64,000 nucleotides of DNA from a virus (Duplodnaviria > Heunggongvirae > Uroviricota > Caudoviricetes): IMG/VR virus record IMGVR_UViG_2925939204_000001. The stretch is one strand, 5' to 3'. The notes below the pieces were generated by a model. The model did not search any database and was not told the origin of the DNA. It saw only the letters and a list, made by a program, of their open reading frames with translations. Both the position numbers and the translations under genes were made by a program. Shown piece by piece: positions 3,757 through 15,445 of the stretch (the first letter of the stretch is position 1; every line of letters begins with the position of its first letter).

Positions 3757-4095
3757 TCAGGCTGCTTTTTTATTCAGGTTCCGCTGAGAAATAAATTTTT
3801 CAGCAGTATTGATACGACTTAACTCTTCCTGGACGCGCATATCATTTTCGACTTCCCACAGATCTACTGCGGTCTGAAGATTAATCCAAAAATCTACAGA
3901 AGTATCGAATGCTTTTGCCAGGCGATATGCCATATCCATCGTTAGCTTACGATTGTTATTAACAAGAGCGCTTACGGTGTTACGATGAACATGAAGTATT
4001 TCTGCTAACTCGTTGATCTTCAGCTCTAACGGCTCCAGGTATTCGTACAGCAGGATATCACCTACGGTCGTCGGTTTTCTGGTTGCCTGTTTCAT
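3757..4095 (-). CDS. higA: HigA antitoxin (XRE-type HTH, VapI-like)
   Basis: GDILLYEYLEPLELKINELAEILHVHRNTVSALVNNNRKLTMDMAYRLAKAF...FWINLQ matches VapI/HigA antidote HTH pattern; immediately downstream of higB. Confidence 0.8.
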   Translation of the reverse strand: MKQATRKPTTVGDILLYEYLEPLELKINELAEILHVHRNTVSALVNNNRKLTMDMAYRLAKAFDTSVDFWINLQTAVDLWEVENDMRVQEELSRINTAEKFISQRNLNKKAA

Positions 4096-7879: not shown

Positions 7880-8785
7880 ATGAGATCAGTCGCTTTCAAA
7901 AATATCTTCATCTATCGTCTTTCACGCGAAGTTAGCTGGGATACTGCAGAAGTAAATGCAGCCCTTAGCAAGTTTGTGTTTACCCCATGCGGTTCTCAGG
8001 ATATGGCTAAAGCTGGTTGGACCTCCGTTCTTGGTGACAACCTCACCCATGAATACCAGGGTTTTCTTCTGATACAGCATAAACGAGAGGAAAAAATCCT
8101 ACCTTCTCAAGTGCTCAAAGAAGAGTTACAGAAAAAAATCCTGACACTTGAAGAAGAGCAAGACAGAAAGCTGAAGAAGACCGAAAAAGATTCGCTGAAG
8201 GATGAAGTGCTTCACTCTCTTCTTCCTCGTGCTTTCACGAGAAAATCACTCGCCAAAATCCTGATCGACCGCAGCAACCATCTGGTATTCGTTGAGGCAA
8301 GCAGCGCCAAAAAGGCAGAGGACCAGCTGGCTTTATTGCGAAAATCGCTCGGCAGCCTGCCTGTCATTCCATTCACACCACGCGAACCGCTGGAAATTAC
8401 AATGACCGAGTGGTTTAAAAACGGCTTCCCTGCCGGATTTACAGCAGGTGAAGACGCCACATTAAAGGGTCTGCTCGATAATGGTGGTGCCGTTCGCTGC
8501 AACAAAGTTGATCTACAGTCCGACGAGATTATGTCTCACATTGAGGCGGGGAAAGTAGCTACGACCGTTGCAATTAACTGGATGGACCGCGCGTCGTTCA
8601 GAGTCAACGATGATATGAGTATCAAAGCCCTGACATTCTGTGATGATCTCTATGACCAGAACGACGATATCGACCGGGAGGATGTAGCACAACGATTTGA
8701 TGCTGATTTCGTGCTCTTTACGGGCGAATTATCTGCACTGTTTAACGCGCTGGTGGAGGCCATTGGCGGTGAAGCAGAACGTTAA
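7880..8785 (+). CDS. rdgC: recombination-associated protein RdgC
   Basis: Near-colinear match to E. coli RdgC ([51 protein letters not shown]-terminal [16 protein letters not shown]...GGEA). Confidence 0.9.
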
Positions 8786-10925
8786 CCTTCGATATGGTTC
8801 AGTTTGCAGTGGAATTGAAGCCGCGAGCATTGCCTGGGAACCGTTGGGTATGCGTCCGGCGTGGTTTGCTGAAATTGAGCCTTTTCCATCTGCCGTTCTT
8901 GCGCACCGCTGGCCTCATATCGCCAACCTTGGCGATATGACAAAACTTGCCAAAAAAGTCCTGGCTGGGGAAATCGAATCCCCTGATGTGCTCGTCGGGG
9001 GAACACCTTGTCAGGCATTCAGTATCGCGGGATTACGTGGTGGGCTTGATGATGAGCGCGGCGCGCTAACTTTGAAGTATGTGGAGCTTGCAAATGCAAT
9101 TGACGACAAACGGTCTGAGTCCTTCCTCAAACCGACAGTTATCGTCTGGGAAAATGTCCCAGGAGTCCTGTCATCGGCAGATAACGCCTTCGGATGTTTC
9201 CTTGCCGGATTGGCTGGAGAAGATGCACCATTTGAACCAGGTGATCGACCTGAATCAGGAAAAAGTAACGCGTTCTGGCGGTGGGATGGCAAAACCGGTT
9301 GCCATGCTCCAAAGTGGCCGCAGTGTGGTTGTATTTATGGACCGCAGCGAAAGGTGGCCTGGAGAATACTTGATGCCCAATACTTCGGAGTGGCACAACG
9401 ACGCCGACGCGTGTTTGTTGTCGCAAGTGCTCGAACAGACCTCGATCCCGCAACGGTACTTTTTGAGTTCGAAGGCGTGCGCCGGGATATTGCGCCGAGC
9501 AGAGGCGAGGGGAAGGAAGTTGCCGGAAATGTTGGAAATGGCATTAAAAGCGGGAGCCATTGGGATAACCCTGTAAATCCTCACCCGACACTTGCCCGAT
9601 CGCACAATACCGGCGGGACGGGTGCAAGCAACCAGGAGATTTTTTCACAGCGCGGAAGTGGGCTTGTCGGTGCTTACCGGATGGTAGCATTTGGTGAGTA
9701 TGCGGATGATGAGGCGGCTTCCACGGTCAAGGCCAGAGATTTTAAGGATGCAACCGACCTGGCTGTTTTTGACAGTGCGAACGTCGGAGTGGCAGTACGT
9801 CGCTTAACGCCTGTCGAGTGCGAACGCCTGCAGGGCTTTCCTGACGGGCACACGTTGATCCCTACGGAAAAGCGTAAAAAAGTTTCTTCAGATGAACTGG
9901 CATACCTTCGCAATCACTATCCAGATTTAAGCGAAGAAGAGGCCGCGATGCTTGCAGCTGACGGACCGCGTTACAAAGCGATCGGCAACAGCATGGCAGT
10001 TCCTGTTATGCAATGGATAGGGTGTCGCATTCTTGCGACCGTAGCGGATAAACAGCAAAAAACAATAAATACCATTACCTACACAAGAAAACTCCGGACT
10101 CCGGATGAATATGAACGCCCAATATTCAAATGGGTAGGCGGTAAATTCTCAGAGTTGCCTACAGTGCTTGAGCATCTACCACACGGCAAGCGGTTAATAG
10201 AACCATTCGTTGGTGGCGGTTCCGTATTTACGAATGCAGGATTTCGCCACAACCTGCTTAATGATATTAACGGTGACCTGATTAACTTCTATCAGACATT
10301 GCAGCGAGAGGGACATTCGCTCGTCACGCTGGCATATAGTTTTTTCAAAAATTACAACAACGCTGACGCTTACCTCGAAGTGCGCGAGGCATTTAACAGA
10401 GGAAAGTATGACCAGCTACATCATGCTGCCGCCTTTTTGTACCTTAATCGGCACTGTTTTAATGGCGTAACGCGGTACAACCAAAATGGCGAGTTCAACG
10501 TGGGGTATGGCAAATACAAAGCGCCCTACTTCCCACATGCAGAGATGGAGGCATTTTTGGCTGATGACGTACTCAAAAACACGTCCTTTGTATCAGGTGA
10601 CTTTGCTGGCGTCATCGAGGCGGCTGGTGAAGGCGATGTGATTTTTTGCGATCCGCCGTATGAACCGCTGCCGGATACAGAAGGGTTTACCAGTTATTCA
10701 GGAAATAGCTTCCGTTTCGACGAACAGAAACGGCTGGTATCTCTATTGGTGGAAGCCCACCAGCGCGGCGCTAAGGTAGTGATAACAAATAGTGGTGCGC
10801 CAAACATCCGTGAACTATATGAACGAAACGGGTTTAAAGTACATCATATGGCAGCCAGACGGTCGGTGTCCTGCAAGGCGTCAACACGTGTAGTTGCTAA
10901 CGATATAATTGCAATAATGAAGTAA
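8697..10925 (+). CDS. dmt: bifunctional DNA methyltransferase: N-terminal C5-cytosine MTase fused to C-terminal Dam-like N6-adenine MTase (P1 Dmt-like)
   Basis: C5 motifs [23 protein letters not shown] (PCQ), VWENVPG (ENV); Dam-like KWVGGK and FCDPPYEP (DPPY). Start uncertain: in-frame GTG at 8769 or TTG 8763 more likely than 8697/8700, which overlap rdgC by ~86 nt. Confidence 0.85.
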
Positions 10926-10957
10926 AAAACGCCGCAGTAGCGGCGTTTACTTTTTTA
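10926..10957. terminator. bidirectional rho-independent terminator (AACGCCGC-AGTA-GCGGCGTT flanked by A- and T-runs)
   Basis: Perfect 8-bp stem with TTTTTT after and AAAAA before; sits between convergent dmt and glnS. Confidence 0.7.
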
Positions 10958-10973
10958 TGTGGCGAAATACCTA

Positions 10974-12635
10974 TTAACCTAACTTCGCCCAGGTATCACG
11001 CAGCCCAACGGTGCGGTTAAATACCGGTTTTTCCGCCGTAGAATGGCGGCTGTCGAGGCAGAAATAACCTTCACGCTCAAACTGGAATGCTTTACCCGCT
11101 ACCGCTTCTTTCAGCGACGGTTCAGCAAAACCCTGTTTGATCACCAGCGATTCCGGGTTAATCACCGACAGGAAATCATCCGCAGCACCTGGGTTCGGCA
11201 CGCTGAACAGACGATCGTACAGGCGGATTTCAACCGGCAGCGCATGTGCCGCGCTCACCCAGTGAATAACGCCTTTCACTTTACGACCATCTGCCGGATC
11301 TTTGCTTAAGGTGTCGGCGTCATAAGTACAGAAGATGGTGGTGATATTGCCTTCGGCATCTTTCTCCACGCGTTCAGCCTTAATGACGTAAGCATTACGC
11401 AGACGCACTTCTTTACCCAGCACCAGACGTTTGTACTGCTTGTTAGCTTCTTCGCGGAAATCGGCGCGGTCGATCCAAATCTCACCGCTAAACGGCACCT
11501 GACGGCTACCCATTTCCGGTTTGTTTGGATGGTTCGGCATGGTGACCATTTCGCCTTCGCCCTGGTAGTTTTCGATAACCAGTTTCACCGGATCGATAAC
11601 CGCCATTGCGCGCGGCGCATTTTCGTTGAGATCTTCACGGATGCAGGATTCCAGCGACGCCATCTCAATGGTGTTGTCCTGCTTGGTCACGCCGATGCGT
11701 TTGCAGAACTCACGAATAGAAGCCGCAGTGTAACCACGACGACGCAGACCGGAAATGGTCGGCATACGCGGGTCATCCCAGCCTTCAACGTGCTTGTCGG
11801 TCACCAGCAGGTTCAGCTTACGCTTGGACATCACAGTGTATTCCAGATTCAGGCGCGAAAATTCGTACTGGCGCGGGTGAACAGGAATGGTGATGTTGTC
11901 CAGTACCCAGTCATACAGACGACGGTTGTCCTGGAACTCAAGCGTACACAGAGAGTGCGTAATACCTTCCAGCGCATCGCTGATGCAGTGGGTGAAGTCG
12001 TACATCGGGTAGATGCACCACTTGTTGCCAGTCTGGTGATGTTCAGCAAACTTAATGCGGTACAGCACCGGGTCGCGCATCACGATAAACGGCGAAGCCA
12101 TGTCGATTTTCGCACGCAGGCAGGCTTTACCTTCTTCAAAACCACCGGCACGCATTTTTTCGAACAGCGCCAGGTTCTCTTCAACGCTGCGGTCGCGGTA
12201 CGGGCTGTTTTTACCCGGCTGCGTCAGGGTGCCGCGGTATTCGCGGATCTGTTCCGGCGTCAGTTCGTCAACATACGCCAGGCCTTTGTTGATCAGTTCA
12301 ACAGCATAGGCATGGAGTTTGTCAAAATAATCGGAGGAGTAACGGATGTTGCCAGACCAGTGAAAACCTAACCATTCAACGTCGTTTTTAATCGACTCGA
12401 CGTACTCGATATCTTCTTTTACCGGGTTAGTGTCGTCGAAACGCAGGTTGCACTGGCCTTTATAGTCCTGGGCGATCCCGAAGTTCAGGCAGATAGATTT
12501 CGCATGACCAATATGCAGATAGCCATTCGGTTCCGGCGGGAAACGGGTATGTACTGTGGTGTGCTTACCACTGGCCAGATCTTCATCGATGATCTGACGA
12601 ATAAAGTTAGTCGGGCGGGCTTCTGCCTCACTCAT
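10974..12635 (-). CDS. glnS: glutaminyl-tRNA synthetase (host-like, full length 553 aa)
   Basis: Essentially colinear with E. coli GlnRS from [20 protein letters not shown], incl. class I HIGH motif (PNGYLHIGH) and VMSKR (KMSKS-type) motif. Confidence 0.95.
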
Positions 12636-12802
12636 TGTGGATTCCTCAAAGCGTAAACAACGTATAACAGCGTATGATCTTATAAGCCGAATAGGCTGAC
12701 AACCACTAGTTGATTAGAAATTACTTTCTATCGTTATTTCAATAATGAGCTTTTTCATGAAGCCCACTTTTGCGCATAAGTAAATTAATGACAAATGGTA
12801 CA

Positions 12803-12868
12803 CAATTGGAACCAAAAAGGATGTAAAGGTGCACCAAATTAGTGGTGTATTGGTGCACCTTTGGTTCA
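12803..12868. repeat. palindromic element AAAGGTGCACCAA-N12-TTGGTGCACCTTT with flanking TTGGAACC/GGTTCAA arms
   Basis: Perfect 13-bp inverted repeat (12825-12837 / 12850-12862) just downstream of the parA/RHH operon; candidate centromere or operator. Confidence 0.4.
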
Positions 12869-12903
12869 AGACTTTTTAAGTTCTAAAACCAACCTGAAAG
12901 ACT

Positions 12904-13191
12904 TTATTTTGCTTCCTCAGACTCCGCTAACATGAGGATAGCATGGCGGATCATATTCAATTTGCTGCGATTATGCTTTTTGCTCAACGCATCAAGTACC
13001 TGGTACTCGTATTCATTGAAACCAACACGAATAGATTTAAAATCACGTGGAGCGTCCTTATCGAGCACTTTGTTGTCTTCTGGTTGCTCACCCGGCACCA
13101 AATCAGCCTTACTTGCAAAATCCTCAATTCGGCGTTCAAGATCGGGGTCTTTTACTTCGGGGGCTTTTACCGATTTACGAGGCTTAATCAC
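12904..13191 (-). CDS. ParG/ParB-like ribbon-helix-helix centromere-binding protein (95 aa)
   Basis: Small basic protein with C-terminal RHH-like segment (SIRVGFNEYEYQVLDALSKKHNRSKLNMIRHAILML); overlaps parA stop by 8 nt. Confidence 0.65.
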   Translation of the reverse strand: MIKPRKSVKAPEVKDPDLERRIEDFASKADLVPGEQPEDNKVLDKDAPRDFKSIRVGFNEYEYQVLDALSKKHNRSKLNMIRHAILMLAESEEAK

Positions 13192-13825
13192 TTAATAACT
13201 CCTTAACCAACATCTGGATTTCACCTTTAGCTTTCCCGTTGTCCATCTCAACAACGCCCTTCCCTTCAGCCATGCAATCGCGGTAAACCTTACGATCACG
13301 AATGATGGTTTTCAGCAACTTCAGTTGCGGATATTCAGCCAGGTACTCTTTGGCCTCATTGGTTTCATTCACAACCGGATTGGATGGGGCCATTGTTAAG
13401 ACTGCGAACGCCTTAATGCTAGGATTAGGCATCAGGTCCAAAGCCTCTTCAAACACTTCAACAAAGTGTGCCAGCGTGTCTAAATCTGGTTGAGATGGTC
13501 TGAATGGGACCAACACAATATCTGCAGCGGTTATGCCTGTACGCATCTCTTTGCTATCGCGCCCGGCTGTATCAACAACAACAAATTCATAACGCTTATC
13601 CAGATCGAGAAGTGTTTCTCGAATATTACCAAACTTCTGGACACAATGAATTACAGGAGAAACCTCTGCCGTGTTACGGTCAGCTGCCCAGCGGGCAGCT
13701 GTTCCTTGCTTGTCTGCATCTAGTAACACTACATCCTTATTTGCGCGGGCAAGCTCCGCACAGATGTTTACGCTTGTGGTTGATTTTCCACAGCCACCTT
13801 TTTGGCTGACTACCAATATAATCAT
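13184..13825 (-). CDS. parA: ParA-type partition ATPase (small, type Ib)
   Basis: Deviant Walker A VVSQKGGCGKSTTS; likely start is the ATG giving MIILVVSQKGG with GAGGAA SD (track start 13855 is an upstream TTG). Confidence 0.85.
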   Translation of the reverse strand: MIILVVSQKGGCGKSTTSVNICAELARANKDVVLLDADKQGTAARWAADRNTAEVSPVIHCVQKFGNIRETLLDLDKRYEFVVVDTAGRDSKEMRTGITAADIVLVPFRPSQPDLDTLAHFVEVFEEALDLMPNPSIKAFAVLTMAPSNPVVNETNEAKEYLAEYPQLKLLKTIIRDRKVYRDCMAEGKGVVEMDNGKAKGEIQMLVKELLSD

Positions 13826-14112
13826 ATCCGTTCCTCGGTGTGATTTTGGTATCAAAACGGTTCCAGATAAGAGCCTTTTTGATGCGGGACAGGCTCTATA
13901 ATGGAGTCATGAATGTTTGGCAAAGTATAACATCAATCAGACCAAATACACCTTATATTGCATCCTATTTAACACGAAATCAGCCCTAAATTGGAACCAG
14001 ATACAAAATTGCACCATAACAGCACCTAAATGGTGCCAGTTCAACACTAATTAGACACCATTAAGGCACAAAAAGGGCTGCAATTTGCAGCCTTAAACCA
14101 GCACATCTTCTG

Positions 14113-14457
14113 TCAATCAGGTAGAGAGTCAGCCAGATTGCGCGCCGACGCGCTTTTGGCAACAACTTGCTCCTTCACTGGCTCAATGGAGGCAGGGCGC
14201 TCCTCAACCGCAGCTGGTAGTTCCAGGAAGGATGCCAGCATTTTTCGGATCAGCTCCGGGTTATTGTCTTCGGTCAGCAGGGAAGCCAGTAATCCTGGAA
14301 GCCTGCTATCGACTTCTCCCAGCGCAAGCCCTGCCAACAATGCAGTTCTTGCCATATCGCTATGTTTTTTTATCTTCTCGCTCGCCGCCTTTTCATTGGC
14401 ATAAGCCTCTGGGCGAAGATAAATCATCACTTTCTTACGTTCCTGAGACATGGACAT
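14113..14457 (-). CDS. parR: ParR/StbB-like centromere-binding protein
   Basis: RTALLAGLALGEVDSRLPGLLASLLTED resembles R1 ParR (RAALTAGLALYRQDPRTPFLLCELLTKE); directly downstream of parM. Confidence 0.7.
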   Translation of the reverse strand: MSMSQERKKVMIYLRPEAYANEKAASEKIKKHSDMARTALLAGLALGEVDSRLPGLLASLLTEDNNPELIRKMLASFLELPAAVEERPASIEPVKEQVVAKSASARNLADSLPD

Positions 14458-14463
14458 ACCTCG

Positions 14464-15420
14464 TTAACCGATTGCTTTCAGGCCATGAACAAGAGCAAGT
14501 TGCGGGTCATCCGCCACGAAGAAACGGTCATCACGAATATTAACTTGCTCGCGAATTGCATCTGCCACCAGCGGTGCGCCACCACCGATCACCATGACAT
14601 GCGTATATCCTTTAAAGTCGCCAATCACATCAAGAACGCGGGTACGCAGACGGTCAATGCTTGCGGCAATGGCCTTTTTCACATCACCAATCGCTGATGG
14701 GTCATTGATATTGTCGTTCAGATAATCTTCATCGTGGCGGTTAATAATGAGCTGATCAACATTGTAATTTGACGTTTCGGTATTGGCTCTGGCAAGTGCT
14801 TGCCTTACTTCCCTGGTAACCAGAGAGACGCCAAGATTCGAATCGCCAAAAACACGGGAAACTGCCGTCATTTGCCCGGCGACCATTGAAACATCAAGGG
14901 TAGTTCCACCCAAATCGACGATAAGAATAGAATGGGCAGGGTTCAGATTGTCGCACAGGCCAATTCCTGCCGGAATAGACTCCGGTCGTACCGTAACTTT
15001 CTTAATCGTGAACACATTGCCTTTATTCAGCGTGACGGGGCGCATAAGGCTGGCTTTCTTGCGCTCGATGTTATCGAGATTGTATTGCGCGTCGTCGTCG
15101 TAAAACTCCGCCAGAGGCAGCGTGACCACAATTTCTACTTCCTGCGGCTCAATGCCACTTGTCAGCAGGGCATGGTGAACAGCCAGGACGTTAAGCGGGC
15201 TGTATTGCCATTCCACGTTATTCGTCGGCAGAACATCTGGCGAGATCAAATCATACGAATACTTTTCGTCGTCAATGACATAGTTAAACGGCTTGCCAGC
15301 ACCAAATGTTGCTGACCATCCGCGCTTAAAGCTGTTAGGGCTGATGTGAGTGCGAGTTTCCCCGTCGTGCTCCCACAGCATTTTGATATTGGTTGAACCA
15401 TCATCGATAAAAATGCGCAT
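14464..15420 (-). CDS. parM: ParM/StbA actin-like segregation ATPase
   Basis: N-terminal MRIFIDDGSTNIK and IVDLGGTTLD actin-fold phosphate motifs; start taken at internal ATG with GGAG SD. Confidence 0.85.
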   Translation of the reverse strand: MRIFIDDGSTNIKMLWEHDGETRTHISPNSFKRGWSATFGAGKPFNYVIDDEKYSYDLISPDVLPTNNVEWQYSPLNVLAVHHALLTSGIEPQEVEIVVTLPLAEFYDDDAQYNLDNIERKKASLMRPVTLNKGNVFTIKKVTVRPESIPAGIGLCDNLNPAHSILIVDLGGTTLDVSMVAGQMTAVSRVFGDSNLGVSLVTREVRQALARANTETSNYNVDQLIINRHDEDYLNDNINDPSAIGDVKKAIAASIDRLRTRVLDVIGDFKGYTHVMVIGGGAPLVADAIREQVNIRDDRFFVADDPQLALVHGLKAIG

Positions 15421-15445
15421 CTTCTTGCTCCACTTCTGAGACACA

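Follow-up and report, generated by a model that had tools for sequence, protein, structure and literature searches.

What would a temperate phage gain from one extra aminoacyl-tRNA synthetase (aaRS) while its host keeps its own? The puzzle is raised by a complete gene for glutaminyl-tRNA synthetase (GlnRS), glnS, in IMG/VR virus record IMGVR_UViG_2925939204_000001, of which we analysed a stretch of 64,000 nucleotides (the window). We consider it likely that this is a functional second housekeeping GlnRS gene, forming an autonomous moron cassette of a phage-plasmid resembling Escherichia phage D6, and that it is kept there by selection; for the gene we infer expression, activity and a modest dosage benefit. 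Since the cassette is compact and self-contained, and relatives without glnS exist in nature, the question is directly testable. The gene lies as follows.

10974..12635, minus strand: glnS coding sequence (CDS), class I glutaminyl-tRNA synthetase (open reading frame, TIGR00440, alignment to PDB entries, dN/dS, G+C content)

The six-frame list of open reading frames (ORFs) gives at this position an ATG-initiated ORF of 553 amino acids, which matches the NCBIfam equivalog model TIGR00440 (glnS, 'glutamine--tRNA ligase') over profile positions 1-524 of 524 with 1067 bits, the equivalog cutoff being 425.8 bits. Residues 1-553 align with residues 1-553 of the crystallised E. coli GlnRS (1o0b; also 1gtr and others), and 548 of the 553 are identical; the end-to-end colinearity with the solved enzyme includes the C-terminal anticodon-binding domains. 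The five substitutions relative to E. coli GlnRS are V97I, Q106K, I112V, D510E and V552L, and the protein ends in WAKLG* where the E. coli enzyme ends in WAKVGE*, the terminal Glu having been lost. The class I motifs HIGH (residues 41-44) and VMSKR (the form of KMSKS in GlnRS) are the same as in E. coli. An earlier note on this DNA, made from the letters alone, had described the gene as full length and nearly identical to E. coli GlnRS, and these comparisons bear it out. The gene on the phage-plasmid is complete and apparently functional, and its product would be expected to charge tRNA(Gln). With a G+C content of 52.6% in glnS as against 47.5% in the whole window, the cassette is also a compositional island.

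The limits of the cassette can be read from D6-like plasmids that do not carry it. NZ_AP027678.1 and the Escherichia marmotae plasmid NZ_CP099353.1 are syntenic with the window and of the same replicon type, and are without 10934-12905; in BLAST comparisons with the window, homology ends at 10933/10949 and restarts at 12906. The interval 10926-12900 that the earlier note had singled out is thus approximately the segment absent from these relatives. The cassette and its parts are the following.

10926..12905, minus strand: whole glnS cassette, present here, in place of which syntenic glnS-less D6-like plasmids have 113-137 bp of unrelated sequence
10927..10948, no single strand: bidirectional rho-independent terminator hairpin, AAACGCCGC-loop-GCGGCGTTT (terminator call on both strands, RNA fold)
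12642..12647, minus strand: Shine-Dalgarno sequence GAGGAA, 6 nt upstream of the ATG (read from the sequence)
12702->12674, minus strand: predicted native glnS sigma-70 promoter, TTGTCA-17 nt-GATCAT (promoter scan, homology)
12703..12722, minus strand: last stretch clearly homologous to the chromosomal nagE-glnS intergenic region, and upstream limit of BLAST-detectable chromosomal DNA (BLAST against MG1655, alignments)
12723..12905, minus strand: 183-bp spacer from the orf61 stop to the glnS promoter, of uncertain origin (fold, alignments)

As to the capture junctions, BLAST against E. coli MG1655 finds chromosomal homology over 10978-12722 (95.9%), and at lower identity the homology goes on through the 3′ untranslated region (UTR) into the terminator. 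The last three codons of glnS differ from those of E. coli, and likeness persists in the 3′ UTR (ATTTCGCCA versus GTTTCGCTA). The hairpin at 10927-10948 stands 1 nt past the stop codon of the neighbouring methyltransferase gene dmt and 25 nt past that of glnS. Its 9-bp G+C-rich stem is flanked by an A-run and, on the opposite side, a T-run; the hairpin scores as a terminator in either direction and folds as RNA with z = -4.6 and -3.8 in the two orientations relative to shuffled controls, in agreement with the earlier claim of a bidirectional terminator common to glnS and dmt. The same stem (AAACGCCGC/GCGGCGTTT) with its T-run follows the chromosomal glnS of Salmonella, Citrobacter, Enterobacter, Pseudescherichia and Kluyvera, and a near-identical one that of Klebsiella; because of this occurrence in other genera, the terminator shared with dmt can be taken for the one native to chromosomal glnS, which came in together with the gene. 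The dmt terminator of glnS-less D6-like plasmids is different (AAAAGCCCCGCCTGGGGCTTTTT and AAAAGCCCCATATGGGGCTTTT), and by this comparison the captured glnS terminator evidently took its place. In the chromosomes of E. coli (MG1655, L001 5760-6230) and E. ruysiae, repetitive extragenic palindromic (REP)-type elements have been inserted after the glnS stop codon, ahead of the ancestral terminator. The short ancestral arrangement from stop to terminator is kept in the phage-plasmid and in the other enterobacterial genera compared.

At the other end, alignment with nine chromosomal glnS leaders shows a 5′ UTR almost identical to the chromosomal one, and the native promoter, as predicted, came along with the gene. 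A Dam site (GATC) lies within its -10 element, and the -10 region is kept in all chromosomal glnS genes compared (E. coli, E. ruysiae, Salmonella, Citrobacter, Enterobacter, Pseudescherichia, Kluyvera and Klebsiella) and also in the plasmid allele of E. fergusonii. According to the summary of Plumbridge and Soll (1987) given in PMC11741368, Dam represses the E. coli glnS promoter, and the data of PMC11741368 reproduce this repression, deletion of dam raising glnS about 2-fold (log2 fold change +1.08). The 20 nt that precede the -35 element recur nowhere else in the window, even with up to 3 mismatches allowed, and no repeated operator of a repressor was seen there. The spacer at 12723-12905 has no similarity to E. 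coli chromosomes or to the spacers of NZ_AP027678.1 and NZ_CP099353.1, which are also unlike each other. It contains a hairpin at 12826-12863, an inverted repeat AAAGGTGCACCAA...TTGGTGCACCTTT with a 13-bp stem followed by a T-run (z = -3.4), which is retained with a changed stem in the divergent E. fergusonii plasmid (L003 ~3900-3950; z = -4.3). This hairpin is the probable terminator of the parA-orf61 operon, shielding glnS from it; a role as a protein-binding site or centromere is a further possibility. Taken in silico, the features that define a moron are found together here, namely an own predicted promoter, an own terminator, absence from syntenic relatives and a distinct G+C content.

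The genes on either side of the cassette are these.

8697..10925, plus strand: dmt, 742-aa Dcm-type plus Dam-type DNA methyltransferase (TIGR00675 dcm, TIGR00571 dam; D6 annotation 'similar to P1 gene dmt')
12904..13855, minus strand: partition cassette of parA (13184-13855) and the small orf61 (12904-13191) (NF041546 ParA_partition; D6 annotation)

dmt and glnS are convergent, and the parA-orf61 cassette is on the same strand as glnS, on its upstream side. The gene is thus bracketed by non-chromosomal genes, as had been claimed, with the Dcm/Dam methyltransferase on one side and two partition cassettes on the other. These two are distinct systems that adjoin each other on the minus strand over 12904-15444, a small ParA ATPase with its 95-aa partner (12904-13855) and ParM with one of 114 aa (14113-15444). 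There are relatives in which just one of these halves finds a match, which indicates independent exchange of the two cassettes.

The 3-kb region 10400-13400 matches D6 over its full length with 98.8% identity, and window positions 10095-13900 match it with 98.7-98.8%. The annotation of D6 around the match has P1 gene homologues in P1-like synteny (tail, baseplate and head genes, dmt, par cassettes). With E. coli plasmid NZ_CP117014.1 the identity over these 3 kb reaches 100%, and 97 plasmids in PLSDB, from hosts that include E. coli, Salmonella and Shigella, carry at least 80% of the 3-kb region, both junctions included. The matching records are circular, mostly about 75-97 kb with a few larger, and nearly all non-mobilizable; all 11 of the D6-like plasmid records for which typing was retrieved belong to rep_cluster_1704. 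Among 5,426 complete E. coli genomes, the par region adjoining glnS is plasmid-borne in 100 and on the chromosome in none. From these sequence matches the element is evidently a D6-like, P1-related phage-plasmid, its maintenance as a plasmid being read from the matching records. That the window might be chimeric, or span the junction of a chromosomal prophage, was what the earlier note had named as refuting its reading. The same glnS junctions occur in about 100 independent plasmid assemblies (among them the 97 complete records from E. coli, Salmonella, Shigella and other hosts) and in the D6 virion genome, so that they are genuine and a chimera is excluded; with the par flank on none of the 5,426 chromosomes, a prophage junction has practically no probability either. 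The core of the earlier reading, a full-length glnS of host derivation carried as cargo by a phage-plasmid, is accordingly supported by the ORF, the profile hidden Markov model, the D6 match and the synteny.

Several side observations concern the modular make-up of this group of elements. Where the window has the single 742-aa dmt (N-terminal Dcm-type C5 and C-terminal Dam-type N6A parts), D6 has two separate methyltransferase ORFs. The N-terminal part of dmt (~8786-10094) has no match in D6 and is 90% identical to the E. marmotae plasmid, so that the methylase module is mosaic within the D6 group. In NZ_CP066033.1, a 97,453-bp E. coli plasmid, glnS is 100% identical to that of the window and the par region only 89.2%, which implies different histories for the glnS cassette and its flanks and modular exchange among D6-like plasmids; NZ_CP077480.1 is likewise 97,453 bp long and has the same 89.2% identity in its par region. 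NZ_CP021720.1, a plasmid of E. coli AR_0128, has a par flank 100% identical to that of the window and, at 216,378 bp, is more than twice the usual size; it may have arisen by co-integration of a D6-like phage-plasmid and a second replicon.

Carriage of glnS by D6-like elements is already known. A paper of 2019 found glnS in all D6-like genomes and regarded it as a moron, and it discussed, on the model of the cysS gene of plasmid pBT1, a gain in host fitness or a part in plasmid maintenance (PMC6799933). The earlier note's observation is therefore a correct re-discovery, and what is added here is incremental: the co-capture of promoter and terminator, the sister plasmids without glnS, and the mosaicism between plasmid and chromosome. 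No later functional work on D6-like glnS was found in a literature search. D6 orf62, annotated as 'glutaminyl-tRNA synthetase, similar to E. coli GlnS', corresponds to the gene of the window in identity, position and junctions. The CDS of D6 orf62 and of glnS in the Salmonella plasmid pYU39_89 (Gilcrease and Casjens 2018; PMC6799933) are 98.3% and 98.4% identical to it, respectively, and have the same WAKLG* end; unlike the window allele, both hold a K-12-like tract at about nt 1071-1580. Chromosomal glnS of E. coli (b0680) and other Escherichia has a homologous promoter with the -10 Dam site kept, a homologous leader, a CDS with 96.1-97.4% nucleotide identity and a homologous terminator stem; the window copy differs from it in lying between dmt and parA on a phage-plasmid, in being without REP elements and in its changed last codons.

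The earlier note had called an essential aaRS on a phage-plasmid unusual. This holds among phages at large, where only 13 of 50,697 phage records encode a GlnRS, two of them D6, two the 635-642-kb genomes of uncultured phages (50-54% identity) and the remainder short entries of metagenomic or fragmentary kind; it does not hold within the D6 group, of which the gene is a published and typical trait. The two uncultured genomes are those of huge (jumbo) phages (compare PMC7162821). Their GlnRS homologues belong to the large translation-gene sets of lytic megaphages and are no recent host copies, in contrast to the near-identical host gene that the window's element, one of a group of 90-96-kb temperate phage-plasmids, carries. 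Among the short records, MT835705.1, MT836034.1, MT836433.1 and others ('Bacteriophage sp.', human faecal) are unannotated contigs with GlnRS homologues of 50-58% identity, which could be true phage genes or bacterial contamination of viral bins.

Does the host keep its own gene? The D6 group occurs in about 1.8% of complete E. coli genomes, in most of them with glnS, and 5,424 of the 5,426 have glnS. The 76-80 places of plasmid glnS, set against 5,498 records in 5,424 genomes, mean that the chromosomal gene could be missing in 2-6 carriers at most. This estimate was made from records and places, since a count of the nagE-glnS locus is confounded by its variable intergenic region and many split matches. 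In the carriers 1EC213 and Survcare253, residues 1-550 of the chromosomal GlnRS are those of K-12, and the promoter region (150 nt) does not differ from that of MG1655. Whether the chromosome retains glnS, a point raised by the earlier note, can thus be answered in the affirmative.

The history of the plasmid gene is informative on both its origin and its maintenance. In the E. fergusonii plasmid (L003), both junctions of the cassette are where they are in the window, with identity of 86.9% over the 3.8-kb region and 94.9% in glnS. The plasmid alleles have three derived states in common, none of which is found on any chromosome compared: the substitution I112V, AACTAGTGG upstream of the -35 element, and A in place of G immediately before the ATG. 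The common junctions together with the common derived states point to one old capture. Along the gene, identity of the window allele to K-12 is 95.7% in nt 1-820, 100% in nt 821-1070 and 95.5% in nt 1071-1580. The middle segment is not mutationally cold, because E. ruysiae is only 94% identical to K-12 there. D6 and pYU39_89 have the window's 5′ haplotype but are 99.2% K-12-like in nt 1071-1580, and in a runs test the runs of parental sites are far fewer than expected (0 of 10,000 permutations). Over the promoter and first 420 nt, the window allele has 93-95% identity with practically every one of the ~5,420 E. coli chromosomes and 95-100% with plasmid copies, so that this part forms a plasmid-specific haplotype absent from these chromosomes; in the last 580 nt of glnS, chromosomes reach 98.3% identity. 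The pattern indicates that the 5′ end would have kept the original captured lineage while the remainder was overwritten patchwise by gene conversion with E. coli chromosomal alleles. In the 5′ segment the synonymous divergence (dS) is 0.24 from E. coli, that between E. coli and E. ruysiae being 0.28, which suggests either that the donor was a non-coli or unsampled Escherichia or that divergence was long and independent; in this comparison E. ruysiae is the sole non-coli Escherichia among the matches listed, the chromosomal alleles of E. albertii, E. fergusonii and E. marmotae lying outside it. Chromosomal glnS of Salmonella is ~85% identical to the plasmid allele, and no Salmonella-type conversion tracts were seen in the two Salmonella-borne plasmid alleles examined. 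Plasmid pSa1423-160k (NZ_MK356558.1) was left out of the allele comparison; compared with every other allele, its D6-like region abounds in small indels, and its ~90% identity is an artefact of sequence quality, not divergence.

The ratio of nonsynonymous to synonymous divergence (dN/dS) is 0.00-0.03 between the window allele and other plasmid alleles, 0.02-0.04 between the window and chromosomal alleles, and ~0.01 between chromosomes. Between the window and E. fergusonii plasmid genes there are 75 synonymous and 5 nonsynonymous differences (dN/dS 0.017), of which the unconverted 5′ 420 nt hold 20 and 2, respectively. By these estimates, purifying selection on plasmid glnS appears to be as strong as on the chromosomal copies. 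Intact alleles were found in 10 of the 12 plasmid genes examined. The other two, those of CP042632.1 and CP088384.1, are frameshifted by single-base insertions, one an extra G after GCCC at nt 167, in a very sparsely annotated record, the other a change from A5 to A6 at ~nt 1604.

From these elements, the following course of events can be proposed. An ancestral element would have captured ~1.8 kb from the chromosome of an Escherichia-lineage bacterium, comprising a Dam-sensitive sigma-70 promoter, leader, CDS and terminator, and the piece would have landed between dmt and the parA operon, replacing the dmt terminator. From then on glnS would be transcribed alone from its native promoter, probably constitutively, shielded from the par operon by the upstream hairpin and closed off at its end by the bidirectional terminator. 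It would be expressed in the lysogen, and during lytic replication its dosage would rise with copy number, and partial derepression would follow at that stage as Dam/Dmt methylation of the -10 GATC falls behind. The product, essentially E. coli GlnRS, would add to the GlnRS pool of the host. The gene would have been long kept on the plasmids by purifying selection, repeatedly recombining with the chromosomal glnS of its hosts.

A number of points weigh against such a second, selected housekeeping gene. glnS is missing in about one quarter of D6-group plasmids (in the complete E. coli genomes, 100 par regions as against ~74-80 plasmid glnS genes; for example NZ_AP027678.1 and NZ_CP099353.1) and is for this reason dispensable for the element. 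There is no sign of an extra demand for Gln, as the 44 large ORFs of the window have 4.25% Gln and are not enriched in it. The promoter is called by homology and consensus. Gene conversion from the selected chromosomal copy could imitate part of the signal of purifying selection, and the two frameshifted alleles also count here, although they may be sequencing errors. The last two points bear directly on simple hitch-hiking, one of the roles suggested in the earlier note, according to which the cassette brings no benefit and looks conserved because of recurrent conversion from the chromosomal gene. The clear mosaicism with chromosomal alleles, the absence of glnS from some relatives and the two broken alleles would all fit. 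Yet the promoter and 5′ 420 nt, as a haplotype found on 0 of ~5,420 chromosomes, have not been overwritten, and in this very segment the differences between two old plasmid lineages are still overwhelmingly synonymous; moreover, the cassette is kept in Salmonella hosts, whose own gene is only ~85% identical and has left no conversion tracts in the two alleles concerned. Hitch-hiking is therefore weakened by strong purifying selection across old plasmid lineages, and we regard it as rather unlikely. It could instead be that the host comes to depend on the plasmid copy, the chromosomal gene being lost or silenced and loss of the plasmid being lethal, as has been proposed for pBT1 cysS. That plasmid, from Salmonella Typhimurium ST313 strain D23580, likewise carries a duplicate of an essential aaRS gene and is a precedent for a maintenance role; in the account given of it in PMC6799933, which raised the analogy, the chromosomal cysS is strongly down-regulated and the plasmid copy is expressed. 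The position of glnS next to partition and maintenance genes would also suit an addiction module. Unlike in the pBT1 case, the D6-like carriers examined keep, at the sequence level, an intact chromosomal glnS with its promoter, as shown in 1EC213 and Survcare253 and as the counts imply for essentially all carriers; toxin-antitoxin systems are already present on these elements, and some D6-like plasmids do without glnS. Host dependence, which the earlier note had also listed, thus finds no support in the sequences and is highly doubtful.

Two further alternatives start from the enzyme rather than from the plasmid. An extra GlnRS might, in line with the third role listed in the earlier note, serve as counter-defence or insurance, buffering the cell against toxins, effectors or defences that hit GlnRS or deplete Gln-tRNA(Gln). 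Circumstantially, long-term selection on an apparently redundant enzyme, the rarity of GlnRS genes in phages and the fact that the D6 group also carries tRNA genes may be cited in its favour. These tRNA genes (Asn, Thr, Ser and Met) are elsewhere on the elements (PMC6799933); ARAGORN finds no tRNA gene in the 64-kb window, and hence no partner tRNA for GlnRS here. The enzyme has only 4-5 conservative substitutions, with which it would not escape an inhibitor or modifier that recognises host GlnRS. To our knowledge, no toxin or defence system directed at GlnRS has been described, which also counts against this role, and we find it decidedly unlikely. A second aaRS copy on a plasmid often means resistance to an inhibitor, which would speak for a resistant variant in the manner of mupA or other self-immunity aaRS paralogues. 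The plasmid protein, however, shares 99% identity with the sensitive housekeeping form, all its substitutions lie outside HIGH and VMSKR, only I112V is common to all plasmid alleles, and the E. fergusonii plasmid allele is without V97I, Q106K and D510E; there is accordingly very little chance that this is a resistance gene. A more speculative reading would make glnS a translation booster, or a counter-defence gene, that senses replication and methylation. A jump in GlnRS during the lytic phase is possible because the -10 element has the Dam site known to repress chromosomal glnS and the phage's Dam-type methylase gene adjoins the cassette. If this were true, extra GlnRS would be made exactly in lytic growth or establishment, for example to offset an attack by host or competitor on the charging of Gln-tRNA(Gln), but we consider it unlikely and prefer a second housekeeping gene kept for a modest dosage benefit.

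The mosaic alleles have a meaning of their own. A housekeeping gene on a mobile element can be a channel through which plasmids and chromosomes exchange core-gene sequence, which is of relevance to typing and phylogeny based on glnS and provides an example of gene conversion between plasmid and chromosome. It is also conceivable, though unlikely, that the 1.7 kb of near-identity to the chromosome is itself used as a recombination portal between phage-plasmid and host chromosome. Integration of the element into the chromosome via this homology was considered and rejected, the par flank being chromosomal in 0 of the 5,426 genomes.

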